From a virus (Duplodnaviria > Heunggongvirae > Uroviricota > Caudoviricetes): a DNA stretch of 57,091 bases. A model generated the notes under the pieces. That model did no database searches. It saw only the letters and a list, made by a program, of their open reading frames with translations, and was not told the origin of the DNA. The DNA lies in IMG/VR virus record IMGVR_UViG_2534681675_000025, positions 1 through 57,091 of that record. One strand, given 5' to 3'. Both the position numbers and the translations under genes were made by a program. This document shows, one piece after another, positions 3,001 to 52,020 of the stretch (the first letter of the stretch is position 1; every line of letters starts with the position of its first letter).

Positions 3001-3690
3001 ATGATTAATCCTGCAAATGGCAACACAAAACCGATGTTTGTTGGTCAGGGTGATCAGATATTCATGAATGAAGTGTTCCTGAAATATCTGACGGCTCCCA
3101 CCATTACCAGCGGCGGTAATCCTCCTGCATTTTCCCTGACACCGGACGGAAAGCTGACCGCTAAAAATGCCGATATCAGCGGTAACGTGAATGCGAACTC
3201 CGGGACGCTCAACAACGTCACGATAAATGAGAACTGTCAGATTAAGGGGAAACTGTCAGCCAATCAGATTGAAGGCGATATTGTCAAAACGGTGGGAAAA
3301 TCCTTTCCGAGAAATGGCAGTTATGCCAGCGGTACAATAACGGTCACTGTGTACGATGACCAGGCTTTTGACCGTCAGATAGTAATCCCACCCGTTCTGT
3401 TTCGCGGTGGTAAGCATGAAAACTTTAACAGCAACAACCAACAGTCATACTGGTACTCAACCTGTAAGCTGCAGGTGCTGAAGAACGGACAGGAAATCTT
3501 TCAGCAACCCGCGACGGATGTCAGCAGGGTATTTTCATCCGTCATCGATATGCCTGCCGGACACGGGCATGTCACCCTGACTTTCAATGTTTCTTCATAT
3601 GGTGCTAATAACTGGACGCCAACGACCAGTATCAGCGACCTTCTTGTTGTCGTGATGAAGAAATCAACAGCCGGTATCAGTATCAGCTGA
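1..3690 (+). pseudogene. J: Lambda J-like host specificity (tail tip) gene, 5' end outside window, reading frame broken at about 372-395, 1771-1774 and 1890
   Basis: Three consecutive ORFs (55-435, 432-1829, 1924-3690) in frames 1/0/1 together read as one J-like protein (SVIDAISEGP..., KTTSQYLASVV..., C-terminal fibre domain); frame switches sit at G/A homopolymer runs. Confidence 0.8.
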
Positions 3691-9005: not shown

Positions 9006-10019
9006 CTACAAATTATAAAGAGGATTTTTAGTCACCGCGTCTTCAAGGTGATCGGGCGAAAAGTGGGCGTAAATCATGGTCATTTTTATATCGGCATGAC
9101 CCAAAATATCACGCAGTACCAGTATGTTTCCGCCGTTCATCATAAAGTGACTGGCGAATGTATGGCGAAGCACGTGGGTGCATTGGCCCTCCGGTAGGTC
9201 AATACCGGCCCGCTTTACTGCCCGCTCAAAGGCTTTTCTGCATGGCGTGAATAACTTTCTTCTGTTTTTGGGGAGTTCATCATACAGATCCTGAGATATC
9301 GGCACAGTACGGTTTTTCTTGCCTTTTGTTTTTGTATAAGTAATTCGGTATTTCGATATTTGATGGCCCTGCAGATTTTCGGCTTCACTCCACCGTGCGC
9401 CAGTAGCCAGGCATATTTTTGCAATCATTAGTAAGCTAGGGCTTTGAGATTCAGCACATGCCGCCAACAGGCGCTTGATTTCGTCCGTGGAAAGAAAAGC
9501 CAGCTCACCTTCGGCAATTTTGAAGGTCGGAAGTCCTGCCAGCGGGTTTGGTGCTGACCAGTGTCCTAGTTTTTTTAATGTACCGAACACAGATGATAGA
9601 TTGCGCTGTTCAAGGTTTACCGTGCGGGGCTTAACGGGCGACATCAGCGTGCCATCTTCATTTCGCACTTCACCTTTTAGCCGTGCTTCGCGGTATTTCG
9701 TAAAGTCACCGGCAGTCAGCTCTGAAGCGATGGGATCGCCCAGACCATTACAGATAATTCCAAGTTTCGCCATGAGTCGCTTGGGGTCTGCGAGTGTTTG
9801 ACCATACAGGGAATACCACAGCTCAATTAATTCTGATAGGTGTCGCCGATCTTCCTTTTCTCCCAGCCAAGGTTTCTTGTTTACCTCGTCCATGGTGAAA
9901 TTCTCAAACGCAATGGCTTCGCCTTTCGTCGCAAATTGTTTGCGTACGCGTTTGCCATCTCGCCCGTTTGGGTAGCATTCACATAACCACTTTCCGTTCG
10001 GCTGTTTTCTGATGGTCAT
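9006..10019 (-). CDS. int: Tyrosine integrase (P2 Int family)
   Basis: 337 aa; C-terminal HVLRHTFASHF...GH...MIYAH catalytic region; adjacent to repressor. Confidence 0.9.
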   Translation of the reverse strand: MTIRKQPNGKWLCECYPNGRDGKRVRKQFATKGEAIAFENFTMDEVNKKPWLGEKEDRRHLSELIELWYSLYGQTLADPKRLMAKLGIICNGLGDPIASELTAGDFTKYREARLKGEVRNEDGTLMSPVKPRTVNLEQRNLSSVFGTLKKLGHWSAPNPLAGLPTFKIAEGELAFLSTDEIKRLLAACAESQSPSLLMIAKICLATGARWSEAENLQGHQISKYRITYTKTKGKKNRTVPISQDLYDELPKNRRKLFTPCRKAFERAVKRAGIDLPEGQCTHVLRHTFASHFMMNGGNILVLRDILGHADIKMTMIYAHFSPDHLEDAVTKNPLYNL

Positions 10020-12604: not shown

Positions 12605-13458
12605 GCACCATCCTGAAATGGGCGGGAAATAAAACCGCCATTATGTCCGAACTGAAAAAACACCTTCCTGCTGGCCCGCGACTGGTTGAACCTTTCGCGG
12701 GTTCCTGTGCTGTGATGATGGAGACGGATTACCCCAGCTATCTGGTTGCGGATATTAATCCTGATTTAATCAACCTCTATAAAAAGGTTGCCGCTGATTG
12801 TGAATCGTTTATATCTCGCGCCAGAGTTTTATTTGAGATCGCAAACAGGGAGGTGGCTTATTACAACATAAGGCAGGAGTTTAATTACTCCACTGAAATT
12901 ACTGATTTCATGAAAGCGGTATATTTCCTGTATCTCAATCGTCACGGTTACCGTGGTTTATGTCGCTATAACAAGAGCGGGCATTTCAACATTCCCTACG
13001 GTAATTATAAAAATCCGTATTTCCCTGAAAAAGAAATTCGCGCATTTGCAGAAAAAGCCCAGCGGGCAACGTTTATCTGCGCCAGCTTTGATGAAACGCT
13101 GGCGATGTTGAAGGCGGGGGATGTGGTGTATTGCGATCCGCCGTATGACGGCACGTTTTCCGGTTATCACACTGACGGCTTCACTGAAGATGACCAGTAT
13201 CACCTGGCATCCGTTCTTGAACATCGGTCATCAGAAGGACATCCGGTCATTGTTTCTAACAGTGACACATCCCTGATCCGTTCGCTGTATCGCAATTTTA
13301 CTCACCACTACATCAAGGCAAAACGCAACATCGGTGTGGCAGCTGGCGAGGGTAAATCAGCAACAGAAATCATTGCTGTTTCCGGGCCGCGCTGCTGGGT
13401 GGGATTTGATTATTCGCGTGGCGTGGACAGTTCTGCCGTGTACGGAGTACGTGCATGA
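12601..13458 (+). CDS. dam: DNA adenine methyltransferase (Dam-like, N6-adenine)
   Basis: Begins [11 protein letters not shown]; contains DPPY motif ([10 protein letters not shown]) and N-terminal SAM-binding region FAGSCAV. Confidence 0.85.
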
Positions 13459-15869
13459 GTCATGCCGATATGAACAACTGCTGCGGCTTTAACGAGGCTA
13501 CCGCAGCATTCTCATGGAACAGCCCGAAAAAGGCCATTAACCCTTATCTGGACCCGGCGGAAGTTGCGCCGGTTTCTGCGCTTTCAAACCTGATCACTCT
13601 GTACGCTGCCGATAACGAGCAGGAACAACTGCGCCGTGAGGCACTGAGTGATCAGGTCTGGGAGCGTTATTTCTTTAATGAATCCCGTGATCCTGTCCAG
13701 CGCGAAATGGAGCAGGATAAGCTAATTAGCCGGGCAAAGCTGGCGCATGAGCAGCAGCGTTTTAATCCAGACATGGTCATTCTGGCGGATGTCAACGCCC
13801 AGCCTTCCCATATCAGCAAGCCGCTGATGCAACGTATTAAATACTTCAGCAACCTGGGCAGGCCAAAGGCTTATTCCCGCTATTTGCGTGAGACGATTAA
13901 GCCATGCTTGGAACGACTGGAGCATGTACGCGACAGCCAGCTATCTGCATCTTTTCGTTTTATGGCAAGCCATGAAGGGCTGGACGGTCTGCTGATCCTG
14001 CCTGAAATGAGTCAGGATCAGGTGAAACGCCTGTCCACCCTTGTCGCTGCGCATATGAGCATGTGTCTTGATGCCGCTTGTGGTGATTTGTACGCCTCCG
14101 ATGATGTTAAGCCGGAAGAAATCCGCAAGACATGGGAAAAGGTGGCAGCAGAAACCCTGCGACTGGATGTCATACCGCCTGCGTTTGAGCAACTCCGCCG
14201 GAAAAGAAACCGCCGCAAACCTGTGCCCTATGAACTCATTCCGGGTTCGCTGGCGCGTATGCTGTGCGCCGACTGGTGGTATCGGAAATTATGGAAGATG
14301 CGTTGCGAATGGCGGGAAGAGCAGTTGCGTGCTGTCTGTCTGGTCAGCAAAAAAGCATCTCCCTATGTCAGCTATGAAGCCGTGATGCATAAACGTGAGC
14401 AGCGCCGTAAGTCGCTGGAGTTTTTCCGTTCTCATGAACTGGTGAACGAAGACGGCGACACGCTGGACATGGAGGATGTGGTAAACGCCAGCAGCAGCAA
14501 CCCTGCGCATCGCCGCAATGAGATGATGGCCTGTGTTAAAGGCCTGGAGCTTATCGCGGAAATACGCGGTGACTGCGCCGTTTTCTACACCATCACCTGT
14601 CCGTCACGTTTCCATTCCACGCTAAATAACGGCAGGCCCAACCCGACCTGGACAAATGCGACGGTAAGACAAAGCAGTGATTATCTGGTTGGCATGTTTG
14701 CTGCATTTCGTAAGGCGATGCACAAAGCCGGATTGCGCTGGTATGGCGTGCGGGTGGCTGAGCCGCATCATGACGGTACAGTTCACTGGCACCTGTTGTG
14801 TTTTATGCGCAAAAAAGATCGCCGCGCCATTACTGCTTTGTTGCGTAAGTTTGCCATTCGTGAAGACCGCGAGGAGCTGGGGAATAACACGGGACCACGC
14901 TTTAAGTCTGAGTTGATTAACCCGCGCAAAGGAACGCCGACAAGCTACATCGCGAAATATATCAGTAAGAACATTGACGGGCGTGGTCTGGCTGGCGAGA
15001 TCAGCAAGGAAACGGGTAAATCCCTGCGTGATAACGCTGAATACGTGAATGCCTGGGCGTCTCTGCATCGTGTTCAGCAATTCCGCTTCTTTGGCATTCC
15101 GGGGCGTCAGGCTTACCGTGAACTGCGATTGCTGGCTGGTCAGGCGGCAAGGCAACAGGGTGACAAAAAAGCAGGTGCGCCGGTACTGGATAACCCGCGC
15201 CTTGATGCAATCCTGGCTGCTGCTGATGCTGGTTGTTTTGCCACCTACATCATGAAGCAGGGCGGCGTACTGGTTCCCCGTAAATATCACCTCATCAGAA
15301 CCGCTTATGAAATCAACGAAGAGCCAACCGCCTATGGCGATCACGGTATTCGTATTTATGGCATCTGGTCACCCATTGCAGAGGGCAAGATCTGCACTCA
15401 TGCAGTGAAGTGGAAAATGGTTCGTAAGGCCGTTGACATTCAGGAGGCGGCAGCCGACCAGGGCGCTTGCGCCCCTTGGACTCGTGGCAATAACTGTCCC
15501 CTTGCTGAAAATTTGAACCAACAGGAGAAAGATAAATCAGCTGATGGGGGCCCCAGAACGGACTTTACCCGCATGGATGACAAGGAGTTGCACGATTACC
15601 TGCACAGTATGAACAAAAAGGGGCGCCGGGAACTGGCTGCAAGGTTACGTCTGGTGAAACCGAAACGGCGTAGAGACTACAAACAGCGAATTACAGACCA
15701 TCAACGACAGCAGCTCGTCTATGAACTGAAATCCAGAGGATTTGATGGCAGCGAGAAAGAGGTCGATTTACTCCTTCGCGGCGGCAGTATTCCGTCAGGA
15801 GCAGGCCTGCGTATCTTCTATCGGAACCAGCGTTTGCAGGAAGATGATAAGTGGCGGAACCTGTATTAA
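13455..15869 (+). CDS. A: Replication initiation endonuclease (P2 gene A family, rolling-circle initiator)
   Basis: 804 aa; conserved region [16 protein letters not shown] and HxH region HWHLLCF typical of P2/186 A proteins. Confidence 0.9.
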
Positions 15870-16456: not shown

Positions 16457-16569
16457 TTTTGTCAATAGACGCTTGTTTTTACTAATCAAAAAGGGTTACA
16501 TATGAGTGAGAGGCGATGTCAATCAGATATCGCCTTGTTTTTTGTCAAGAAAAGAATAATAGGCTAAAA

Positions 16570-17247
16570 ATGAAAATTAATAATGTAGCGTTACCAATAT
16601 CTCTTGCTGTAATCCTAACTGGTTGCGTGCCACATGCTTCTAACCGAAATATCACTGCTATTGAAGTGGTGAAGCCTGCTATTGGGCAAAGTGCTACCGC
16701 CTACATGGGCGATCCCATTATCACATCTGCTACTGGATTTAAAACGGACGTACTAGAACTTGGTGCGGCTAATGGTGCATTGTCTTCTATCGCTGCTGGT
16801 ACATATTGCAGTGAGGGGAATGGAATTTACCGCAATTATCATAACCCTCAAGCTGTTGCGTTAAAAAATCTCTATGGGCAAATCGGTAACTATGTTGATT
16901 ATGTTAGTTACGATGCTGCAAAAAATGAGATATCACCGCCAAATGGTACTTCTTATACTGCATCAGAAATTTCTATCAAACGTGTTCCTGATGGGCTGTG
17001 TCGAGTTAGTAACTCATTGGTTAAGACTATCGAATACAATGGAAATGCAGGCGGTGTAATGAAGTTCACCTATCGTGAATTTGCAAACGATATGGCTCGT
17101 GCAGCATTTACAACAGATTTTTCTGTAGATTCTAAGGGAAGTGACGTTATCGCTTACAAAGGTGCCAAGTTCAAAGTGAACAAGGCTGATAACTCGTCTA
17201 TTTCTTATACAATTATTTCTGGCTTTGACAAGGCTGTCACGTTCTAG
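16570..17247 (+). CDS. Predicted lipoprotein, function unknown (cargo)
   Basis: MKINNVALPISLAVILTGC lipobox signal; 225 aa; lies between the replication gene and cos. Confidence 0.7.
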   Translation: MKINNVALPISLAVILTGCVPHASNRNITAIEVVKPAIGQSATAYMGDPIITSATGFKTDVLELGAANGALSSIAAGTYCSEGNGIYRNYHNPQAVALKNLYGQIGNYVDYVSYDAAKNEISPPNGTSYTASEISIKRVPDGLCRVSNSLVKTIEYNGNAGGVMKFTYREFANDMARAAFTTDFSVDSKGSDVIAYKGAKFKVNKADNSSISYTIISGFDKAVTF

Positions 17248-17350
17248 GTTTCACGCTTACTGAGTATGTTACGATTTTGCACATTCTGCATAAGCGCGCA
17301 TGTCTATGCTGCATGAGATCGCATGATCGTTTGAGGATCTTTTGTGTTAA

Positions 17351-17375
17351 GGCCCGCCAGTTCTGGCGGGCTTTT
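17351..17375 (+). terminator. Putative terminator after the lipoprotein gene
   Basis: ggcccgccag-ttc-tggcgggc stem followed by tttt. Confidence 0.5.
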
Positions 17376-17420
17376 GCGTAGATCATGCAGGTGCATGAAA
17401 ACCACTACATAAAGCGGGCA

Positions 17421-17439
17421 GGCGTGGCGGGGATACGAG
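17421..17439 (+). other. Candidate cos (cohesive end) site of prophage 1
   Basis: ggcgtggcggggatacgag followed by cgcgcgct; resembles the P2/186 cohesive-end sequence as I recall it (GGCGAGGCGGGGAAAGCAC then TGCGCGCT). Confidence 0.5.
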
Positions 17440-17549
17440 CGCGCGCTCATGGTTGAATTAATGAAATTATGGTGTTAAATAGGCTAGCTTTTTAAGTCGT
17501 GAATATTCAATTTTTCAACTCATTTTTTTCATAGGGAGGAGTAATTGAC

Positions 17550-18248
17550 ATGGTTATGTTAGTGGATGACTGTCCACGATGTGGATCACAAAAAATAGCG
17601 TTTGATGTTAATGGGCTGAATTGCACTAGGGTTTACAATGCATTGGGCGGGGGTAAAACATACGAGTACGAGGTCTATTGTGTTTGCCGAGAGTGTCATA
17701 AAACGACAATGTTTCTTTGCAGACCTTTAACGAAAAATAAAACTTTAGATGGCTATAATTGGGAAAGTGGAATATTCGGCTTAAAGGAAGTTGCAGAGGT
17801 TGTTAGGCCTATATCACCGGCAGACTTAGCAGTAGAGGAGCCACCAGAGTTCTTACCTGAGCATATCAATAGTGCATATGAGGAAGGGGCGAAATGTTTG
17901 GCTATAGGTTGTTATAATGCAGCAGCAACCATGTTTAGGCTTTGCCTTGATTATGCCACAAAAGGACTTCTTCCTGATGGGGAGCAAGGGCCTGCGCAAA
18001 AAATAAGGAGAAGCCTAGGGTTAAGAATGGAGTGGTTATTTGATAATCATCTACTGCCTGAAGCTTTAAGGGAACTAGCTGAATGCGTTAAAGATGACGG
18101 AAATGATGGAGCGCATGAAGGTATTTTGGATAAAGCTGCTGCTGAGGATCTTGAAGATTTTACCTATCTTTTTTTAGAACGGCTTTACACTGAACCTCAA
18201 CGCCTTATCGAAGCCAAGACAAGGCGTGAACAAAGAAGAAACAAATAA
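17550..18248 (+). CDS. Zinc-ribbon plus alpha-helical domain protein (possibly DUF4145-like), inserted between cos and Q
   Basis: 232 aa; N-terminal CPRCG...CVCRECH four-Cys ribbon; RBS gggagga before ATG; convergent with Q, 3' ends 8 bp apart. Confidence 0.7.
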   Translation: MVMLVDDCPRCGSQKIAFDVNGLNCTRVYNALGGGKTYEYEVYCVCRECHKTTMFLCRPLTKNKTLDGYNWESGIFGLKEVAEVVRPISPADLAVEEPPEFLPEHINSAYEEGAKCLAIGCYNAAATMFRLCLDYATKGLLPDGEQGPAQKIRRSLGLRMEWLFDNHLLPEALRELAECVKDDGNDGAHEGILDKAAAEDLEDFTYLFLERLYTEPQRLIEAKTRREQRRNK

Positions 18249-29098: not shown

Positions 29099-29696
29099 TC
29101 TGCTGCCACCGGGTTCAACTTCACTGGAGCGCCGACTGGCGCAAACCTGTAGCGGGATTTCTGATCTGCAGGTGCCGCTGCGTGACTTGTGGAATCCGGC
29201 TACCTGTCCGGTCAGCTTCCTGCCTTATCTCGCCTGGGCGTTCTCTGTGGATCGCTGGGACGAGGGCTGGACAGAAAGCGTCAAACGCCAGGTAGTGAAG
29301 GATGCTTTTTATATTCATCAGCATAAAGGAACTACCAGTGCCGTGCGGCGGGTGGTGGAACCGTTCGGATTCCTGATCCGCATTATTGAGTGGTGGCAGA
29401 CCGGAGAAACACCGGGCACGTTTCGCCTGGATATCGGCGTGCAGGACCAGGGCATCACTGAAGATACCTATCTGGAACTTGAGCGGCTGATAAGCGATGC
29501 CAAACCATGTAGCCGTCACATGATCGGCATGTCCATCAATCTGCAGACCAGCGGTCCGCATTGGGTGGGGGCCGCCAGCTATCTTGGCGAAGAAATCACG
29601 ATCTATCCGTATATCAACGAAACAATTATTTCCGGCGGCACCGCGCATGAAGGCGGGGCGGTCCATGTTATTGACACAATGAGAGTGAATCCATGA
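29091..29696 (+). CDS. I: Baseplate protein (P2 gpI family)
   Basis: 201 aa, begins MNSLLPPGSTSLERRL. Confidence 0.85.
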   Translation: MNSLLPPGSTSLERRLAQTCSGISDLQVPLRDLWNPATCPVSFLPYLAWAFSVDRWDEGWTESVKRQVVKDAFYIHQHKGTTSAVRRVVEPFGFLIRIIEWWQTGETPGTFRLDIGVQDQGITEDTYLELERLISDAKPCSRHMIGMSINLQTSGPHWVGAASYLGEEITIYPYINETIISGGTAHEGGAVHVIDTMRVNP

Positions 29697-31210
29697 GCAC
29701 AAAATTTTATACCCTGCTGACGGATATTGGCGCGGCGAAACTTGCCAGCGCCGCCGCGCTCGGTGTGCCGCTAAAAATTACCCATATGGCGGTGGGCGAT
29801 GGCGGCGGAACATTGCCAACGCCGGACGCCAAGCAGACAGCATTGGTAAATGAGAAACGCCGGGCTGCGCTGAATATGCTCTATATCGACCCGCAGAACA
29901 GCAGCCAGATTATTGCTGAACAGGTGATCCCTGAAAACGAGGGCGGTTGGTGGATACGTGAAGTGGGCCTGTTTGATGAGTCCGGGGCATTGATTGCCGT
30001 GGGCAACTGCCCGGAAAGCTATAAGCCGCAACTGGCTGAAGGCAGCGGGCGTACCCAGACCGTGCGCATGGTGCTGATTACCAGCAGCACGGACAATATC
30101 ACCCTGAAAATCGACCCTGCCGTAGTGCTGGCAACCCGCAAGTATGTGGATGACAAGGTACTGGAGCTGAAGGTGTACGTGGATGATCAGATGGCAAAAC
30201 ATCTTGCCGCACCGGACCCGCATTCACAGTATGCACCCAAAGAAAGTCCGACGTTTACCGGGACACCAAAAGCGCCAACTCCAGCGGCAGGGAATAACAC
30301 CACGCAGGTTGCGACCACCGCGTTTGTTCAGGCGGCACTGACGGCTCTTATTAATGGTGCGCCAGCCACGCTGGACACGCTGAAAGAAATAGCCGCAGCC
30401 ATTAACAATGATCCGAATTTCAGTACCACCATTAACAATGCGCTGGCACTGAAAGCGCCGTTGTCGAGTCCGGCACTCACCGGAACGCCAACAGCCCCCA
30501 CTGCTGCACAGTCGGTCAACAATACACAGATTGCCACCACGGCTTTTGTGAAATCGGCGATTGCAGCAATGGTAGGTTCTGCACCTGCGGCACTGGATAC
30601 ACTGAACGAACTGGCGTCGGCGTTGGGGAATGATCCGAACTTTGCCACGACAATGCTTAATGCGCTGGCAGGTAAACAACCGCTGGACAATACGCTGACT
30701 AATTTGAGTGGAAAGGATGTCGCTGGTCTTCTCGCATACCTTGGTTTGGGAGAAGGTGCTCCAGCTATTGGCGTTCCGTTCTTCTGGCCGTCCGCCGCAA
30801 TGCCAGATACCGTAATCGAAAGCTGGTCCGGCATGGTGTTTTTGAAGTTCAACGGCGCGAAATTCTCTGCCACTGATTACCCTGTGCTGGCGAAAGTGTT
30901 TCCTTCGCTGGTATTACCTGAAGCCCGCGGTGATTTCATTCGTATCTGGGATGATGGCCGTGGTGTTGATAGTGGCCGTGCGTTACTTTCCGCGCAATCA
31001 GACGATTTCAAAACGCACGAGCATAAAATTTTAGGGCTAAATGGAAGTGGCAGTAATGTAGTGTTTGGCACCGTTTCGAATGCTTCTCCATTATATACCA
31101 GCGGCGTTAGTCAGCCGGGTGGAAGTGCTTTGCCCGCTTTTCAAAACCCAGGCGGTACTGAAACGCGTCCCCGTAACATCGCATTCAACTTTTTAGTAAG
31201 GGCTAAATAA
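29693..31210 (+). CDS. H: Tail fibre protein (P2 gpH family)
   Basis: 505 aa; conserved N-terminus; internal repeats of the LDTLxELAxALGNDPNF motif. Confidence 0.85.
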   Translation: MSTKFYTLLTDIGAAKLASAAALGVPLKITHMAVGDGGGTLPTPDAKQTALVNEKRRAALNMLYIDPQNSSQIIAEQVIPENEGGWWIREVGLFDESGALIAVGNCPESYKPQLAEGSGRTQTVRMVLITSSTDNITLKIDPAVVLATRKYVDDKVLELKVYVDDQMAKHLAAPDPHSQYAPKESPTFTGTPKAPTPAAGNNTTQVATTAFVQAALTALINGAPATLDTLKEIAAAINNDPNFSTTINNALALKAPLSSPALTGTPTAPTAAQSVNNTQIATTAFVKSAIAAMVGSAPAALDTLNELASALGNDPNFATTMLNALAGKQPLDNTLTNLSGKDVAGLLAYLGLGEGAPAIGVPFFWPSAAMPDTVIESWSGMVFLKFNGAKFSATDYPVLAKVFPSLVLPEARGDFIRIWDDGRGVDSGRALLSAQSDDFKTHEHKILGLNGSGSNVVFGTVSNASPLYTSGVSQPGGSALPAFQNPGGTETRPRNIAFNFLVRAK

Positions 31211-31803
31211 TGAAACCTGTTTTTGATGAAAATGGACTGGCTACAGTGCCGGGTGATATGCGTTGTTTTTATTATGATGCAGTAACGTATGAATATACGG
31301 GCTGGTCTGATGAATATATTAATACTGGTATAAGTATGCCCGCCTGTTCCACTGGTATTGACCCTGGCGAAAACATTCCGGGAAAAGTGGCTGTATTTAC
31401 AGGTAAGGGATGGAGCCATGAAGAGGACCATCGCAATGAGACTGTTTACTCAATCGAAAATGGCGCAGCTGTTACAGTGGATTATATCGGTGCCATCAAA
31501 AACGGTTATGTCACGCTTTCACCGTTAACGCCATATGATAAATGGGATGGTGAGAAATGGGTGACAGATACTGAGGCACAACACGGTGCCGCAGTAGAAG
31601 CGGCAGAAGCACAGCGTCAGCCACTGATTGATGCTGCAATGGCTTCCATCAGTCTGATTCAGCTGAAATTACAGGCCGGGCGGAAGCTGACGCAGGCAGA
31701 AACCACCCGGCTTAACGCCGTGCTTGATTACATTGACGCGGTGACGGCAACAGATACGAGCACCGCTCCGGATGTCATCTGGCCTGAACTGCCGGAGGCG
31801 TAG
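31210..31803 (+). CDS. G: Tail fibre assembly protein (P2 gpG family)
   Basis: 197 aa, start overlaps H stop. Confidence 0.8.
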   Translation: MKPVFDENGLATVPGDMRCFYYDAVTYEYTGWSDEYINTGISMPACSTGIDPGENIPGKVAVFTGKGWSHEEDHRNETVYSIENGAAVTVDYIGAIKNGYVTLSPLTPYDKWDGEKWVTDTEAQHGAAVEAAEAQRQPLIDAAMASISLIQLKLQAGRKLTQAETTRLNAVLDYIDAVTATDTSTAPDVIWPELPEA

Positions 31804-32209
31804 GCCATTCAATATCTGGAGCACTGGAGGTATCAACCAGTTCCAGTGCGTCCAGATAATCCAGCCACAAATTATATTGCGCCAGTTCCTCACCTTTCAG
31901 ACGACCAATAGCCGCTTTACCAGGCCATTGCTTGGTATTCATATATTCGTTGGACTGATTAATCAATTGCTGTTTTTTCAATTCGGCTGCGGCAATCTGT
32001 TCCTCATGTGTTGGTGGTGGAATTTCAGACCATGCAGGAAAACCATTTTCCCCAGCGATACGGATTTTTCCTTTCGGCGGTAATCCGGAAAACTCAATAT
32101 ACACCTGCTCATCAACTTCAACAGCATCATCTGGCCATGAATTTACATTGATGTAGTCATCCTTAAGCGCAGGATTCACAAAAATATTTAAAGATGGACT
32201 AAAAAACAC
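31775..32209 (-). CDS. G: Tail fibre assembly protein (gpG family), prophage 2
   Basis: 144 aa; Tfa-like C-terminus; 3' end overlaps prophage 1 G by 29 bp, convergent. Confidence 0.75.
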   Translation of the reverse strand: MFFSPSLNIFVNPALKDDYINVNSWPDDAVEVDEQVYIEFSGLPPKGKIRIAGENGFPAWSEIPPPTHEEQIAAAELKKQQLINQSNEYMNTKQWPGKAAIGRLKGEELAQYNLWLDYLDALELVDTSSAPDIEWPTPPAVQAR

Positions 32210-32210
32210 A

Positions 32211-33692
32211 TCACCCTCCTATAGCAACATAACAGCCCGATACAGGATTTGCGGCAGTCGCTACGCTGGAAAAACCACGAAAGCCGCTTTTTGTGATTGC
32301 GGAGGCAGATAGTATTCCGGCACCCGAAGGTGTATGCCCCACGTGGCTGGCAACCATCACGTAGCACGCCGACGGAAAAGCGAAAGGGAAATTGTTTAAA
32401 TATCCCGCATCATCCCCCAGACTTCCCCCAAACTGCCCCACTCCCCACTGGATAATAAGTGGTCTCCGAACGCCAGAAATAATTAATGGAATTGCTACAT
32501 ACCCATTCACCAACATAGCGCCGGTTGTTGCGCCAGCCAGAGCCAATTCCCCCAAACCAAGGTAATCAAGAACTCCCTGAGTGCTGGTTTTACCAAGAAT
32601 GGCACGTCCAACACTTGTCAACGCGGTTAACGCGGCACGATCTGCCCCTGTAAAATATGGGAGTTTATCTGCTGATGTAGCAAGCTCCGCCAGCGCCGTC
32701 AGGGTGGCATCCTTCGGTTGCTTACCCGCAAGCGCGTTAGTCATGGTGGTCGCAAAATTCGGGTCATTGCCCAGCGCCGCAGCCAGTTCGTTCAGCGTGT
32801 TCAGTGCATCAGGTGACGAATCTACAAGTGCGGCAATCGCGGCCATAACGAAAGCCGTGCTTGCGATCTGGGTACTATTAGTCCCCTGTGGCGCTGTTGG
32901 TGTTGTTGGCGTTCCGGTCAGTGCCGGGCTGTTTAATGGTGCTTTCTTGCTCGTTTCATCCATTACCGCCTTAACAGCTTTTGGTGTCGCTGCCAGCGTT
33001 TCAGACGTGCTGTTCGTGGCGCTACTGAGCTGAACAATCCCTTTTTGTGTAGTGGTGGCGTTCTGGGCGGTATATTTCCCGTTAGCCAGGTCATATGCAG
33101 CCTTAACCGCTTTCGGTGTTGCGGCCAGTGTTTCTGATTCACTGTTAATTGCACTGCTTAACTGAGTAAAACCTTTTACGGTCAGCGAGGCGTCCGGGTG
33201 ACGTCGTGACTGTTCGTGCTCTGATATTTTATCATCCACATATTTGCGGGTTGCCAGAACCACAGACGGGTCGATTTTCAGCGTGATGGCTTCGGTGTTC
33301 GTGACAACCAGAATCATGCGGATAGTCTGGGTGCGTCCACTGCCTTCCTGCAACTGCGGTTTGTACGTTTCCGGGCAGTTTGCCACCGCAATGAGTACAC
33401 CTTCATCATCATAAAGCCCAATCTCACGGATCCAGAATCCTCCCTCGTTTTCAGGGATGATTTGCTCCGCAATAATCTGGCTCTGATTGTTAGGGTCAAC
33501 ACTCAGAAGATTCAGCGGTGCAATGCGTTTCTGGTTAATCAGTTTTGTTTGTGCAGGGTCTGGTGTTGGTAACACACCATTTGCATCACCAACGGCCATT
33601 TGCGTCAGATTCAGCTTACTGCCGAGCATCGTCGCGTTAGCCAGTCGTGCCGCGCCCTGATTAGTCAGAATGGCGTAGTATTTCACTGTCAT
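32211..33692 (-). CDS. H: Tail fibre protein (gpH family), prophage 2
   Basis: 493 aa; N-terminus homologous to prophage 1 H; contains LNTLNELAAALGNDPNFATT motif. Confidence 0.85.
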   Translation of the reverse strand: MTVKYYAILTNQGAARLANATMLGSKLNLTQMAVGDANGVLPTPDPAQTKLINQKRIAPLNLLSVDPNNQSQIIAEQIIPENEGGFWIREIGLYDDEGVLIAVANCPETYKPQLQEGSGRTQTIRMILVVTNTEAITLKIDPSVVLATRKYVDDKISEHEQSRRHPDASLTVKGFTQLSSAINSESETLAATPKAVKAAYDLANGKYTAQNATTTQKGIVQLSSATNSTSETLAATPKAVKAVMDETSKKAPLNSPALTGTPTTPTAPQGTNSTQIASTAFVMAAIAALVDSSPDALNTLNELAAALGNDPNFATTMTNALAGKQPKDATLTALAELATSADKLPYFTGADRAALTALTSVGRAILGKTSTQGVLDYLGLGELALAGATTGAMLVNGYVAIPLIISGVRRPLIIQWGVGQFGGSLGDDAGYLNNFPFAFPSACYVMVASHVGHTPSGAGILSASAITKSGFRGFSSVATAANPVSGCYVAIGG

Positions 33693-46614: not shown

Positions 46615-47106
46615 TCACTCTCCTTTGATGCGAATGCCAGTGGTACTCATTCTCCTGATTTCCCAGAGCACACGAGGAACACCACCGTTTCCGACCGGAT
46701 CGCGTTTACTCCGCAGGGCGACGCTTGATTCCGCCCAGCTTTTTCTTGGAGGAAGCTCTTTCACACGAACAAAACCAGCTGCGCGAAGAGATGCTCCTGA
46801 TTCATCTGCCTGGGTGTACGTAATACAACGTTGATAACCCATAGCTTTTGCTGCCCGCCAGACAGCACCATAAAGCGCGCTGTTAGCGTTGCGTTCTCCT
46901 GTGGTACATGTGCGATTTACTTCAAGCGTTAATCCATCGTCCAAATGTCGTGCAACAGGTCGACCGGCTGTCGCCACACCTATCAATTCTCCGGCATCAT
47001 TTCTCAGACCAATGCTGAATTTATGCCCCACCGGGGGTTTATTGTGTCGGTGATGTCTGGATATAAACGCCTTCGCAACACGAAGAGTAACCGGTGAAAT
47101 TTGCAT
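46615..47106 (-). CDS. Hypothetical protein; start taken at MQISPVTL
   Basis: ATG at 47106 preceded by AAGGAGAG and overlapping the upstream stop. Confidence 0.5.
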   Translation of the reverse strand: MQISPVTLRVAKAFISRHHRHNKPPVGHKFSIGLRNDAGELIGVATAGRPVARHLDDGLTLEVNRTCTTGERNANSALYGAVWRAAKAMGYQRCITYTQADESGASLRAAGFVRVKELPPRKSWAESSVALRSKRDPVGNGGVPRVLWEIRRMSTTGIRIKGE

Positions 47107-47108
47107 TC

Positions 47109-47423
47109 TCACTCTCCTTTGATGCCAATGTTTACAGTCTGGCAAGCTTCTCTGAGCACCCAGTCAACAGCGTCTTTCCATGCTCCGGTTTCGGTTGGCG
47201 GATTCTCACGCTTTACCAGTTCATAGAAACGTACTGCTCTAACCAGTCCATCTGACGGTTTTGCCTGTAGTGCAGCCTGAGCTATACGGTATGCCTGGAG
47301 CATACGGGCGTCGTTGATATCCATTCCGAACGGAATTTCTGATGATCGTGATTCTGCATCTTCAAGCCTGGCAATTTCTTTACGTAAAAAGTATTTCAAC
47401 TCTTGTTTTTGTTTTCTGTTCAT
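47109..47423 (-). CDS. Hypothetical protein
   Basis: 104-aa ORF. Confidence 0.5.
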
Positions 47424-47752
47424 GTGTTTTTTCCCTTTTTGTCTGCCACTTCTCTCCTGATAATTTCATTGCACAAATCCACGCACTCATTGCAGATGTA
47501 AACAGACGGTCCAGCAATCACCTTTGTGACTTCGTACTGGGATTTATTGCAGAAGCTGCAATAAATCGTTTCCTCGCCTGAAGCCCATGTTTTGCTGGTT
47601 TTGCCAGACATCAGTTGTTTGAGGTCTTTTTCACGACGAAGAACTATCTGGCCACATTCAGCTATTTTTTGGATGTTGACATTTTCTTCTTGCGCCAGCG
47701 CTTCCATCCGCTCAATCAGTCGCTGCGCTTTTTCTCTGTCAATGTGTTGCAT
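47420..47752 (-). CDS. Small protein with ClpX-type C4 zinc-binding domain at C-terminus
   Basis: [39 protein letters not shown] closely resembles the ClpX N-terminal zinc-binding domain (recalled as [39 protein letters not shown]). Confidence 0.65.
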
Positions 47753-47815
47753 TGTGTCCCCCTTGTTTATGTTCCCGGGTTAAAGTCATCAGGGCGGATG
47801 CGCCCTGATGTTGTG

Positions 47816-48127
47816 TTATTCGGGAAATAACGCCCGGATATTTCCGGCCATCTGACTGGTTATCTGTGCGGTTGGTGCTGGCTGTGACACGGGGCGTTCT
47901 GTCCTGGTTTGTGTCAGGGATAACGCTTCATCGTCAGCCCATGCAGCCAGTCGGTAAGCCTCTGCCGGATTAATTTTCATAAGTGCCAGTCCGGCCAGAA
48001 AAGCCACACGTTGACCACTTTTGCGGGCTTCTGGTGTAAGGCTGTCCAGCCAGGCGCATGCTTTGCCTTCGTTCTTGACGGCGGCGGGCTTCAGATAGAA
48101 ACTTATCCGTCTGGTTGGTGTCGTCAT
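47816..48127 (-). CDS. parR: ParR-like ribbon-helix-helix partition adaptor
   Basis: Start ATG 48127 after AAGGAG, overlapping parM stop; RRISFYLKP...LDSLTPEARKSGQRVAFLAGLAL parallels plasmid R1 ParR (RTIAFKLNP...LDSIPQGERSRLNRAALTAGLAL). Confidence 0.65.
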   Translation of the reverse strand: MTTPTRRISFYLKPAAVKNEGKACAWLDSLTPEARKSGQRVAFLAGLALMKINPAEAYRLAAWADDEALSLTQTRTERPVSQPAPTAQITSQMAGNIRALFPE

Positions 48128-48131
48128 TGGT

Positions 48132-49091
48132 TTACTCCTTGTCCATTGCGTACAGCCCATTAACCAGAGCAAACTGTGGCACCCCGTCCGCGATGAAAGT
48201 CGCATTAACTCCGCAGGCTTCGCGGATAGCGGGTGCCACAATCTCCGCCCCGCCACCGACAACCATCACCCGCCCGTAACCCGAAAAACCCGCCAGCGCG
48301 CGGATCACGCGTTGTTTCAGTGTTTCTTCCTTTTCACGAATAACCGCCATCAGGCTGTTGTAATGCGCGTCATTGTGGATGTGCTGGCGCAGCCAGGCTT
48401 CATCATGGCGATGTTCGATAATGGTATTGGCGATGTGGTGACTGGTACGCATACCGTTAGTGGCCATCACCGACAGTACGGCATCGGCCATCAGGGAAAC
48501 GCCTACGTGTGGATCGCAAAACACCTGGCTGATACCTGCCAGTTGTCCCTGAACCTTTGCCACATCCAGCGTGGTTCCGCCTAAATCCACAATCAGCAGG
48601 GATTCAAACGGACTCATGTCAGCCAGTGCTTTAAAGCCAGCCGGAATGGATTCAGGCATAACCCGCACGTTACGGATAGTGAATGCCTCACCGTTCTGGT
48701 ACTCCACCGGGCGCATAACGTTCGCTTTTTTGCGGTTGATGTTGGCCATGTCCGGCTGTGCGTTTGTGTCGAAATACTCGCTCAGTGGCAGGGTGACAAC
48801 CACATCCACCTCCTGTGGTGTGATGCCTGATTTGACCAGCGCGTGGTGAATGGCGATTACATTCACATCGCTGTACTGGTATTGCGTGTCGGTCGTCTGG
48901 ACAAAGCGATCGCTGACCGGATCAAAACCATAGCGCACGCCATCAAGCATGTAGTTCGCAGGCTGCGAGCCACCGAACGGCGCAGACCATTCCGACTTGA
49001 AGCTGTTCGGGCTGATGGCGTTGCGGCGTTCGCTGTTCTCAGTCCATGCCAGCTTGATGTTGGTGGAGCCGTCGTCGATACAAATTTTCAT
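48132..49091 (-). CDS. parM: ParM/StbA-like actin-type segregation ATPase
   Basis: 319 aa; MKICIDDGSTNIKLAW..., SDVNVIAIHHAL, IRNVRVMPESIPAG, LLIVDLGGTTLD, VMVVGGGAE match plasmid R1 ParM throughout. Confidence 0.85.
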   Translation of the reverse strand: MKICIDDGSTNIKLAWTENSERRNAISPNSFKSEWSAPFGGSQPANYMLDGVRYGFDPVSDRFVQTTDTQYQYSDVNVIAIHHALVKSGITPQEVDVVVTLPLSEYFDTNAQPDMANINRKKANVMRPVEYQNGEAFTIRNVRVMPESIPAGFKALADMSPFESLLIVDLGGTTLDVAKVQGQLAGISQVFCDPHVGVSLMADAVLSVMATNGMRTSHHIANTIIEHRHDEAWLRQHIHNDAHYNSLMAVIREKEETLKQRVIRALAGFSGYGRVMVVGGGAEIVAPAIREACGVNATFIADGVPQFALVNGLYAMDKE

Positions 49092-49120
49092 GTCGCTTTT
49101 CCTTATGTTGATTAATTAAT

Positions 49121-49231
49121 CGTTTACGGGGTTTTTAAATCCCGTTTTTGCCTGTTTTATGCGCGCTTCATATATCGCGGCGCGTTTTTTGCTCATTTAC
49201 GGGATTTGTGAATCCCGTTTCTGTCTGTTTT
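49121..49231. repeat. Two 38-bp repeat units each containing an 8-bp-arm palindrome (ACGGGRTT-N4-AATCCCGT), upstream of parM; candidate parC-like centromere
   Basis: Units at 49121-49158 and 49194-49231 (cgtttacggggtttttaaatcccgtttttgcctgtttt and catttacgggatttgtgaatcccgtttctgtctgtttt). Confidence 0.45.
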
Positions 49232-52020
49232 TTGTTTCCATTGGTCAGGCCACCCCGCAGCAGGTCTGCTTTGCGGCGGGCGCGTTCAGTGGTTTCACTG
49301 ATTCTCTGTGCGTGCTCTGCGTCACGGATGGCGCGCAGCATGTCAGAAAGCACGGTAACGGGTGTCTTCATGGTGTTCTGGTCTTGCTGAAGTGTGGATG
49401 CCAGGCGTGCGGCGGCTTCGGGGTCTGATGCCCCCAGCTGTTCCAGATAACTGGCGACCGGGTTATGGCGGATCTCCGTGCTGCTTACGCCGTGATTACG
49501 GCTCAGGCGCTGCCAGAGCTGCGTGATTCGGTTGTCCGGGCGGGTATCCGGTTTGCGTACAATTTCAAATCCCTGCGGTGCAATGATGCTGCCGTCAACG
49601 TACAGACTGCCGCCCCGTAACAGGTGCTGCATCTGCTGTTCACCGATATGCAGGCCGAGAGATTCAGCAGACTCCCGCCATTCTTTAGCGAGTAATTCGT
49701 GGTTATCAGGCAAAGGCCGCTGCTGTTTGCGGCTCTGTGTCCAGCTCTGCATTTCATCACTGCTGTTTTTTGCCTGTTTGTCACGAAGCGAACGCATCAG
49801 CGCCCGGCGTTCGTGCCGTTTCAGTGAGCGCATCCATTCGTTCACTTCAACGCCGTCAGGGAGCTGCGGCCACGGTGCTGGCCGTTCTTCCGGCTGTTCT
49901 GTCCCGTTGTTGTCCGTTTCCTGTACACGGGGACAGTTATTGCCACGAGTCCAAGGGGCGGCAGGGCCGCCCTGAAGGTCAAAACCATTTTCGCGGGCGC
50001 TGTCTTCCGCTTCCGGTTTACGTCTTACCAGCTTCCAGTTATCCGGATGCGTGCACACACGGGAGGATTCCCCGATGAATGGCGACCAGATCCCGTAAAT
50101 CTGTACACTCTGTTCGCCGTAATCGTTCAGCTCATCTGCGAGGTCGTAGGCTGTGCGAATCAGGTAGTCCTTGCGCGGAACAAGTACGCCACCCTGTTTT
50201 TCAATGTAGGTGGCAAAACATCCGGCATCAGCGGCAGCGAGTACCGCATCCATTGCGTCATCCTTCAGCCGTTGCGGGCCTTCCGGGTTGCGTGCCATCT
50301 GGCTGGCAAGGCGGCGCAGTTCACGCCACACCTGACGGGAGGGGATGCCAAAGAACTGGAACTGGCGGACCCGATGAAGGCGCGCCCAGCCGATGGCGCG
50401 CTCCACGCTCTCGGCCATTGATTTTCCGGTTTCGTGGTCAACGCGTGGTTTGCCCGTTTTCGGGTCGATTCCATCCACGGCGCGGCTGTCCAGGTTTTTT
50501 CCGATGTAGGTGGCGATGTAGCTGGTTGGCGTGCCTTTGGAGCCGTCGACGTACTCCACCTTAAAGCGCGGAGTAATATCATTGCCCAGCTCGTGGCGGT
50601 CTTCCTGAATGGCAATATCGCGGGTGATGGCCACGATGCTGTCGATTTCTTCCGGATGAGCAAAGACCATCATATGCCAGTGCACGGTGCCGTCATGGTG
50701 AGGCTCCACCGTGCGGATGCCATACCAGCGCAGGCCGTCGCGGTTCAGTTTTTTGCGGACCGCCGCAAAAAACGTGTTAACCAGGTAATCGCTGGAGTCG
50801 CGCATGGTGGCCCCGTTCCATTTGGGATTCGGATGACCGTTCTCTGTTGTGGCGTGGTATTTTGACGGGCAGGTGACAGTCAGAAACACCGCTTTGTCGC
50901 CACGGGCTTCGGCCAGAAGTTCCAGTCCCTTCATGGTGGCCATCATTTCTGCCTTACGGTGAACCGGGTTACTTACTCCCGCGTAATACACTGTCTCGAG
51001 ATCAATCGTGAAACCGTCTTCGTTTTCCAGTTCGAAGCTCTTCAGGAAGTCGCGGGTTTTCTCGCGCTGTGCGCGAAACTCGCTTAACGCGTCCTGGCTC
51101 AGATAGGGTGATGTTTTTCTGGAAACCAGACAGGCGGCGCGGAGTTGTTCTTCTCTCCACTCACAACGTAACAGCCACAGTTTGCGTTTCCACCAGTCCG
51201 CACAGGTCAGGCGAAGGATTGCGCCCGGCAGCAGTTCCGTATCCGGTTCGCTCTTGTTCAGGGCTTCGTAATGTGGCGGCATGATGTGCAGGCGTAATGC
51301 GATACGAGCCAGCATCCGGTAAGCCTTCAACATTACATCCATGGTCAGCTCGCCATCTCTGGCACCAAAGCCATCGCAGAGTGTTTCGAAGGTGCTGCTG
51401 AACATCGCCGCGGTCATGGTGGCCAGCGTCTGTATCTGGTGCTTGTTGAGCTGCGGCAGGTAAAGCAAATCGTCCAGGCGTTCGCGCCCGGCAAGGGAGC
51501 GATAACCCGGTGTCAGCCAGCGTCCGTCAGTGCGATCCAGACGTTCGAATATTTTGCGCAGGGTTCCGCGTGCATAGCGTTCCGCCTGCCAGCTCTTTTT
51601 GCCTTTCTGGCGATCGGCTTCCTGTTTTTTGCGCAGGAAAGAGAGGTGGCGGCTCAGTGGTTCACGCAGATAAACAGGTAGTGCCTTTAGTGTGGCAAAG
51701 GCACGGGCTACCGGGTCTTGTTCTGTTGCCCGGCGCTTACTGATGATGCTCTGTGCCAGCTTTTCACGCTGTCCGGCTTCCTCAAGGGATGCCATGAGTT
51801 TTTTACCCATGGCGGATTGTGCGAAAAAGGCTTCTTCCTTCGCTTCCTGTTCTTCCTGTGCCCTTTTGTCCGCCTCAAGGTAGTAACGGATGGCGCGTTG
51901 CAGGTCGGTTTCAGTTTCCTGCCTGCGCTCCGTAAATCTGGCCGGATCAATGGCTGGCCGTGGTTCATTCCAGCTCCATGCAAACTCACTCATGGCTGGT
52001 ATCCCGTCACGCGCTGCCAC
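49168..52020 (-). CDS. A: Replication initiation endonuclease (P2 gene A family), prophage 2
   Basis: 950 aa; conserved TPTSYIATYIGKNLD and HWHMMVF regions shared with prophage 1 A; long C-terminal extension. Confidence 0.9.
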   Translation of the reverse strand: MAARDGIPAMSEFAWSWNEPRPAIDPARFTERRQETETDLQRAIRYYLEADKRAQEEQEAKEEAFFAQSAMGKKLMASLEEAGQREKLAQSIISKRRATEQDPVARAFATLKALPVYLREPLSRHLSFLRKKQEADRQKGKKSWQAERYARGTLRKIFERLDRTDGRWLTPGYRSLAGRERLDDLLYLPQLNKHQIQTLATMTAAMFSSTFETLCDGFGARDGELTMDVMLKAYRMLARIALRLHIMPPHYEALNKSEPDTELLPGAILRLTCADWWKRKLWLLRCEWREEQLRAACLVSRKTSPYLSQDALSEFRAQREKTRDFLKSFELENEDGFTIDLETVYYAGVSNPVHRKAEMMATMKGLELLAEARGDKAVFLTVTCPSKYHATTENGHPNPKWNGATMRDSSDYLVNTFFAAVRKKLNRDGLRWYGIRTVEPHHDGTVHWHMMVFAHPEEIDSIVAITRDIAIQEDRHELGNDITPRFKVEYVDGSKGTPTSYIATYIGKNLDSRAVDGIDPKTGKPRVDHETGKSMAESVERAIGWARLHRVRQFQFFGIPSRQVWRELRRLASQMARNPEGPQRLKDDAMDAVLAAADAGCFATYIEKQGGVLVPRKDYLIRTAYDLADELNDYGEQSVQIYGIWSPFIGESSRVCTHPDNWKLVRRKPEAEDSARENGFDLQGGPAAPWTRGNNCPRVQETDNNGTEQPEERPAPWPQLPDGVEVNEWMRSLKRHERRALMRSLRDKQAKNSSDEMQSWTQSRKQQRPLPDNHELLAKEWRESAESLGLHIGEQQMQHLLRGGSLYVDGSIIAPQGFEIVRKPDTRPDNRITQLWQRLSRNHGVSSTEIRHNPVASYLEQLGASDPEAAARLASTLQQDQNTMKTPVTVLSDMLRAIRDAEHAQRISETTERARRKADLLRGGLTNGNKKQTETGFTNPVNEQKTRRDI

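Follow-up and report, generated by a model that had tools for sequence, protein, structure and literature searches.

The systems closest to the locus described here are the ParMRC segregation cassettes of plasmids such as R1 and R100, in which the repeats of the centromere, parC, lie upstream of the gene for the actin-like ATPase ParM, itself followed by the gene for the adaptor ParR. A system of this kind in the SXT/R391 elements, srpMRC, binds its site, stabilises an unstable replicon and serves the excised, replicating form of the element (PMC4489591). The AlpAC/alpS system of the prophage CGP3 of Corynebacterium glutamicum is expressed soon after induction, and without it the phage DNA is not fully replicated (PMC4446434, PMC5539076). 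Here we analyse a parM-parR cassette in a 57,091-nt stretch of tailed-virus DNA (IMG/VR record IMGVR_UViG_2534681675_000025), called the window below; counts of sites unique in the window refer to the whole 57 kb. The window is composed of two P2-family prophages, one 186-like and one P88-like, and the cassette belongs to the P88-like one, where it follows the replication gene A on the minus strand in the order A, parM, parR. We consider it, with a probability of about 0.55, to be a functional type II (ParMRC-type) segregation cassette that is core to the P88-like P2-family phages and acts on the phage genome while this is an extrachromosomal circle. Phages P88 and phiSM are active phages (PMC6456863).

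The cassette is already annotated and very common, being a module of P88-like phages (Xuanwuvirus) named by PGAP and PHROGs, which the sequence-only reading, made earlier by a model from the letters and the translated open reading frames (ORFs), had missed. RefSeq names its products 'plasmid segregation protein ParM' and 'plasmid partitioning/stability family protein', 'partition protein' is the label of both PHROG 691 and PHROG 2515, and the phage records annotate ParM and a partition protein with no centromere feature. As an annotation the cassette is not new, and the mechanism put forward below follows the textbook.

The parM product matches Pfam StbA_N (7.7e-82) and the ParM C-terminal domain (1.4e-68) as well as PHROG 691 (5e-90), and its alignment with R1 ParM spans the whole protein (PDB 1MWK; residues 2-316 to 2-318, E 2e-92). 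The phosphate and adenosine motifs of the nucleotide-binding site (DDGSTNIKL, PESIPAG, DLGGTTLD and GGGAE) are identical to those of R1 ParM, and overall identity is 46% to the R100-type StbA and 52% to the IncN and IncL/M ParMs. Selection statistics drew on IMG/VR loci, of which 80 were kept, with ParM at least 98% identical in all; these loci did not serve covariation analysis. Of 87 loci, 86 encode a full-length ParM (317-319 aa), and a pN/pS of 0.06 across 68 distinct alleles indicates purifying selection. By homology, then, the parM product is an intact actin-like ATPase and a close homologue of ParM, as the sequence-only reading had proposed for its whole length, rather than a member of some other actin or Hsp70 family.

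The 103-aa parR product, which the same reading had called a ParR-like adaptor, also holds up in profile searches, belonging to the same Pfam family, PF10784, as the ParRs fetched from plasmids (R100-type StbB, IncN and IncL/M). A profile built from the phage and plasmid members finds the ParR/StbB of pB171 (PDB 2JD3, E 1.5e-10). Identity between the phage ParR and the plasmid proteins is low, at 25-29%. An alternative 148-aa ORF with a TTG start was rejected for parR, since PHROG 2515 fits the 103-aa form (1-103/103), as do all homologues. ParR, which like ParM is under purifying selection, is full-length in 80 of 87 loci. Among 52 distinct phage sequences the N-terminal ~60 residues are near-constant, the linker (residues 61-92) is hypervariable, with several unrelated forms and a pN/pS of 0.76, and conservation returns in the last eleven residues, ending NIxxLFPE (pN/pS 0.13), which are similar to plasmid ParR tails. 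Homology thus makes this protein a member of the ParR/StbB family, with the three-part build predicted from R1 ParR: an N-terminal DNA-binding domain, a freely evolving linker and a conserved C-terminal tail. The tail of R1 ParR, which we take to bind ParM as in PDB 4A62, belongs to the same build, and the ribbon-helix-helix fold and the contact with ParM are predicted for the phage protein on the same grounds. Two types of phage ParR, 51% identical overall, have the N-terminal 50 residues and the upstream DNA in common, as would be expected if that domain reads the sites. Taken together, ParM and ParR almost certainly form a working pair.

Between phages, similarity is lost at one of two places, the parR stop codon itself or a point ~18 codons into the gene. 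This, together with the unrelated linker versions, suggests that part of parR (47816-48073) is swapped along with the cargo downstream of it.

The genes are closely packed. The parM stop codon (TAA, 48134-48132) is followed 4 nt onward by the parR ATG at 48127, the parR ribosome-binding site (AAGGAG) lies within the 3' end of parM, and the parR stop is at 47816. A gap of 76 nt separates A from parM, and a terminator scan found no minus-strand terminator between them. The parMR genes are therefore probably made together with the A protein, since they follow it on the same strand with nothing to end transcription.

Upstream of parM, at the position that parC occupies in known ParMRC systems, a repeat search found two direct units that are 83% identical, start 73 bp apart and each contain a 20-bp inverted repeat. 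The two units had been recognised from the sequence alone, with a length of 38 bp, which is corrected here to 42 nt; their placement, one in the gap and one in the 3' end of the A gene directly upstream, stands. The A stop codon (49168-49170) falls between them, so that, A ending at 49168, the distal unit lies within the last A codons. The palindrome claimed for each unit, ACGGGRTT-N4-AAYCCCGT, has exactly two matches in the window when two mismatches are allowed, against 0.05 expected and none of 100 shuffles reaching two, and even looser versions of the motif gave no further copies elsewhere in the prophage or the window. The claim needs one qualification, in that the proximal palindrome has a mismatch in one arm (AACCCCGT).

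Conservation is concentrated in short stretches of the palindromes. In 71 distinct upstream sequences there is no or almost no variation in the cores GGGA and TCCC/CC, and diversity in the distal-unit core is 0.01 versus 0.083 at four-fold degenerate sites of parM. The 4-nt centres of the palindromes are the most variable positions of the region, with a diversity of 0.12-0.26 versus the same 0.083. In the Hafnia loci, where the 3' end of A is much diverged, both palindromes are kept, the distal one in the form GGGATTC-AT-GAATCCC. The centres of GGGAT and ATCCC are ~11 bp apart, and the half-sites of Arc-type ribbon-helix-helix operators have a geometry of ~11 bp. The palindrome units are plausibly the centromere, as judged from these features.

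It is unlikely, though it deserves weighing, that ParM and ParR are real while the palindromes are something else, such as RNA hairpins, plus-strand terminators or sites of another protein, with ParR reading, for example, phased AAAC(G/C) motifs. On the plus strand both palindromes resemble intrinsic terminators, with an 8-bp stem followed by a T-run, and where only one side of the proximal stem has changed, G-U pairing is preserved on the sense strand in 33 cells; no U-run follows either palindrome on that strand. Single-strand folding is favourable at the palindromes, but any palindrome would give that. No stem pair has changed on both sides, covariation does not exceed that of shuffles, and a pair of the distal stem is broken in 15 of 52 sequences. 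The 2-nt centre of the Hafnia distal palindrome suits a symmetric protein site and not a hairpin loop; the ORF list holds no plus-strand gene reading toward the palindromes, and Rfam gave no match there at E up to 1. With no compensatory changes and no Rfam match, a structured RNA or terminator was rejected as an explanation of the palindromes.

The stretch containing both units shares further properties with plasmid parC. Its ten A-runs recur in phase with a period of 10.4 bp (Rayleigh R 0.76, reached by 9 of 1000 shuffles), as do those of a Serratia relative and of three plasmid loci (R1-type, IncN and IncL/M; R 0.54-0.84), and a repeat-block spacing of 72-73 bp is common to the phage region and plasmid parC. 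An R1-like iteron array upstream of parM was looked for by autocorrelation and rejected. The candidate centromere is thus atypical in having no iteron array, yet it shows parC-like block spacing and helically phased A-tracts. The earlier proposal of a complete type II partition locus accordingly stands for ParM and ParR and is plausible for the centromere, whose repeats lie at the parC position but form no iteron arrays.

The Serratia relative, in a P2-like prophage of Serratia quinivorans, bears on which of these features ParR would read. Its A, ParM and ParR proteins are 50%, 58% and 39% identical to those in the window, and a D12-class adenine methyltransferase gene (2664-3335 of its locus) is inserted between A and parM. 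Upstream of its parM are three different short GC-cored palindromes, each after CAAAAAC, and the string GGCAAAAACGGGA, which it shares with the phage region; the palindrome of the two units is missing, which speaks for a non-centromeric nature of the latter. The predicted ParR β-strand is nearly the same as in the E. coli phage protein. On the Serratia evidence, the target of ParR may be the palindrome or an A-tract-plus-GC motif. A test for covariation between ParR and its site was dropped, as S. quinivorans was the single divergent phage-borne relative in 100,044 species genomes and its signals were mixed.

Several of these observations weigh against a functional segregation cassette, or against the palindromes as its centromere. 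Because the Serratia palindromes differ despite the near-identical β-strand, the palindrome may not be what ParR reads. Tandem 10-11-bp periodicity is lacking (z of -1.0 and 1.5 in the phage region versus 4.2-4.6 in R1-type, IncN and IncL/M parC), and the palindromes could have room for only about four ParR dimers. Outside the short cores, the intergenic diversity within E. coli (0.068) is near the neutral value of 0.083. A consensus scan found no sigma-70 promoter between the units; by eye, a weak promoter-like pair can be read (TGAGCA at 49195-49190, a 15-nt spacer and TATATG at 49174-49169), the equivalent pair in Hafnia being better (TGAACA-16-TATAAG), though such a pair is below the threshold of the scan. 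With no convincing promoter found, the timing of expression is a guess. In the short lytic growth of a P2-type phage, segregation to daughter cells may seldom matter. Finally, no experimental study of the site or role of this cassette was found in the searchable literature; a paper on ST95 strains was set aside, since the ParM treated there is that of plasmid pUTI89.

The distribution of the cassette places it with one type of phage. Fourteen phage records, among them P88, PhiR44_2, Xuanwuvirus P884B11 and Citrobacter phage Shae_phiSM, match the 1.6-kb region at 94-98% identity; three phage records cover only parM and the upstream part. The cassette is found in prophages of major pathogenic lineages, at ~98% identity in UTI89 and O145 prophages, as in phage P88, and at 97-98% in ST131 and O157:H7 strains (EC4115 among the latter). 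Among 5426 complete E. coli genomes, parM is present in 1303, at 1443 places, 1441 of them chromosomal, and a matching A gene in 1381, at 1547 places, so that about 93% of the occurrences of this type of A come with parM. When one genome per species was scanned, the phage type turned up in E. albertii, Citrobacter and one contaminated metagenome-assembled genome (MAG). The order A, parM, parR, variable genes, portal was seen in every locus looked at in E. coli, E. albertii, Citrobacter, Cronobacter and Hafnia, and in a diverged form in S. quinivorans. Since this order is constant and similarity breaks at or near the end of parR, parMR is a core part of these phages that stands at the edge of a variable region, and not cargo. 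Chromosomal ParMR pairs in Providencia and Raoultella were considered as relatives and set aside; neither is in a P2-like phage, one lying beside Rep3/MobI and the other beside housekeeping-like genes.

The contaminated MAG is labelled Collinsella sp.; its contigs contain a fragment of a P88-like prophage of the E. coli type, with ParM at 99%, as well as ParMs of enterobacterial plasmids, and it looks like a case of binning contamination.

Its position would also allow the cassette to be accessory cargo that helps the lysogen, excluding related phages or destabilising plasmids through interference by ParR or ParM. The locus lies at the upstream edge of the variable interval between A and the portal gene, and P2 keeps tin and old in that interval. 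We regard this as highly improbable. PADLOC returned no match beyond noise for eight proteins tested, ParM and ParR among them; parMR is constant, and it is the cargo past the parR stop that varies. Cross-reaction with plasmids is unlikely because ParR is so distant from the plasmid proteins and the DNA sites differ. The narrower case of anti-phage defence cargo was rejected on the lack of a PADLOC match, the presence of parM at 1443 of 1547 A places and the restriction of variability to the part past the parR stop.

A plasmid origin of this exact module was likewise rejected. By tblastn, its ParR occurs in 7 of 72,556 plasmid records, and each of these is prophage DNA, one being a phage-sized circle, one a linear fragment from Shigella and the rest very large records, so that the lineage is absent from true plasmids. 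For ParM, prophage copies of at least 95% identity are followed, after a gap, by more than 5000 true plasmids at 52% at most.

The phage-sized circle is NZ_CP148288.1, a circular record of 34,461 bp that is typed as a non-mobilizable E. coli plasmid. Its content is that of an entire P88-like phage, the integrase, cox, A, parMR and the structural genes all being present. The record fits transient circles of excised phage DNA or a real episome, and could be either. It is the chief support for a facultative phage-plasmid, in which ParMRC would keep the whole genome for many generations as a low-copy episome instead of integrating; that the cassette is complete and of plasmid type points the same way. 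Such a life is nevertheless very unlikely. The record has an integrase and could be excised, replicating phage DNA caught by sequencing, and the remaining 'plasmid' matches are very large records or a linear fragment with prophage DNA. P2 replicates by the rolling-circle mode, and gene A stands for that mode and not for copy-controlled theta replication. The chromosomal distribution and the integrase make stable plasmid life improbable, and with them, and without a match to any known defence family, the suggestion of the sequence-only reading that the element is segregated as an episome or uses the system for exclusion is unsupported.

The preferred reading, of a segregation cassette acting on extrachromosomal phage circles, predicts the following sequence of events. 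The parMR genes would be expressed alongside the replication gene once the phage has infected a cell or been induced, while the phage DNA is a free circle, and would not serve maintenance of the lysogen. ParR dimers would occupy the GGGAT/ATCCC half-sites of both palindrome units, giving a small ParR complex on a curved, A-tract-phased stretch of 125 bp that straddles the A stop codon, with the units 73 bp, or seven helical turns, apart. The C-terminal helix of ParR (NIxxLFPE) would hold the ends of ATP-ParM filaments, which on growing would push sister phage circles apart. By analogy with the known systems, the favoured role would be that replicated circles are spread so that unintegrated or excised copies survive division until integration or packaging.

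This role is only slightly favoured over one in organising lytic replication, which, again by analogy, as for AlpAC of CGP3, would be nearly as likely. That the cassette serves lytic development alone, ParM filaments moving or spacing replicating circles (to the membrane or apart) and so raising replication or packaging with no part in inheritance, is possible but somewhat doubtful. P2-type phages package monomeric circles, which suits such a reading, as does the location of the cassette right behind the replication gene with no terminator between. The actin-like protein of CGP3 and its adaptor are induced early, and when they are lost only half as much circular phage DNA is present (PMC4446434). 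The ParM described here is, however, a close relative, at 46-52% identity, of plasmid ParMs that act in segregation, whereas the relation of AlpC to actin-like proteins is distant, and the argument from Corynebacterium does not transfer because E. coli has its own MreB.

A bolder version of segregation, in which a minimal two-operator centromere in the end of the replication gene lets non-integrated P88-like peduovirus genomes be inherited through divisions, appears to us improbable. If true, it would mean that a carrier or pseudolysogenic state can be inherited in phages whose family is thought always to integrate, and that expression of the initiator is coupled to partition. The strong purifying selection argues in any case that the cassette is useful to a phage that normally integrates. 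Its role, once known, would tell whether integrating phages, like SXT/R391, need active partition in their short extrachromosomal phases, and could account for circular 'plasmids' of phage size in assemblies; the site with its two palindromes would be a compact, naturally occurring version of a centromere bound by ParR.

Table 1. Positions in the window of the cassette, its upstream repeats and the adjoining features.
Feature	Position	Strand	Basis or detail
Gene A, P2-family rolling-circle replication endonuclease, 950 aa	49168-52020	-	Pfam Phage_GPA 5.6e-130
parM, actin-like segregation ATPase, 319 aa, ATG start	48132-49091	-	Pfam, PDB and PHROG matches
parR, predicted ribbon-helix-helix centromere-binding adaptor, 103 aa	47816-48127	-	PF10784 1.6e-25
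Proximal 42-nt repeat unit, A-parM gap	49120-49161	-	palindrome 49126-49145, ACGGGATT-TAAA-AACCCCGT (minus strand)
Distal 42-nt repeat unit, last codons of A	49193-49234	-	palindrome 49199-49218, ACGGGATT-CACA-AATCCCGT
Candidate parC-like region, both units and the 31-nt core between them	49111-49236	-	phased A-runs, block spacing
Perfect hairpin, 10-bp stem (CATCAGGGCG/CGCCCTGATG), between parR and the ClpX-finger gene	47787-47810		repeat search

The hairpin downstream of parR, which has a T-rich tail only on the plus strand, marks the border to the variable cargo region. The first gene beyond it (47420-47752, minus strand) encodes a 110-aa protein that is mostly a ClpX-type C4 zinc finger (Pfam 2.8e-18) and aligns only to ClpX residues 3-52; it accompanies parMR in UTI89-type prophages and not in P88. 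Such a free substrate-recognition domain of ClpX, supplied by a phage, could interfere with ClpXP. Further along, still before the portal gene, the variable region also encodes a 176-aa XF1762-family protein (46615-47145, minus strand; NCBIfam 6e-61) with a weak resemblance to Mom DNA-modification proteins (PHROG 1384, 9e-43).

The 186-like prophage, with its integrase (9006-10019), CI, CII, Dam methylase and A gene (13455-15869), is without parMR. Two proteins encoded in its A-to-portal interval (16516-18248), one of 243 aa that matches nothing in Pfam and a DUF4145 protein of 232 aa, are candidates for accessory or defence cargo. The two prophages join at convergent tail-fibre and tail-fibre-assembly genes at ~31.8-32.2 kb, and inverted repeats of 249-355 nt with 71-74% identity are found around this junction (29693-33692). 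The invertase and the tape-measure/sheath block that related P88-like genomes have at the junction position are absent from the window, which suggests an inversion between the prophages, and the full 2-kb junction is present in 1 of 5426 E. coli genomes. The P88-like prophage thus looks to have been split by this inversion, with the par cassette intact.

Compared with the ParMRC systems of R1/R100, IncN and IncL/M, the phage locus has the same ParM domains and motifs, a ParR of the same Pfam family with the N-terminal domain and NIxxLFP-type tail, and the same order parC-parM-parR with a junction of 0-4 nt, and block spacing and A-tract phasing (~10.4 bp) are alike. The differences are in the host, which is an integrating rolling-circle phage with an integrase instead of a plasmid, and in the site, where plasmid parC consists of tandem 10-11-bp iterons and the phage has two 42-nt units with internal palindromes, one of them in the coding end of the upstream gene. 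Unlike R1-type ParMRC, the phage locus showed no clear par promoter in our scan, and its ParR lineage is not found in true plasmids. The best functional analogy and best-documented parallel is srpMRC, which likewise combines a ParM-type ATPase, a small adaptor and upstream repeats in a usually chromosomal element that is only transiently circular, SXT/R391 being conjugative and the P88-like element viral. AlpAC differs in that AlpC is a distant actin-like protein outside the ParM family, that CGP3 is a cryptic actinobacterial prophage, and that the filaments are thought to carry DNA to the membrane and not to push copies apart. From the cassettes of P88 (NC_026014), Shae_phiSM, PhiR44_2 and the E. 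coli genomes in RefSeq there is no substantive difference, and the window holds one more copy of the same module.

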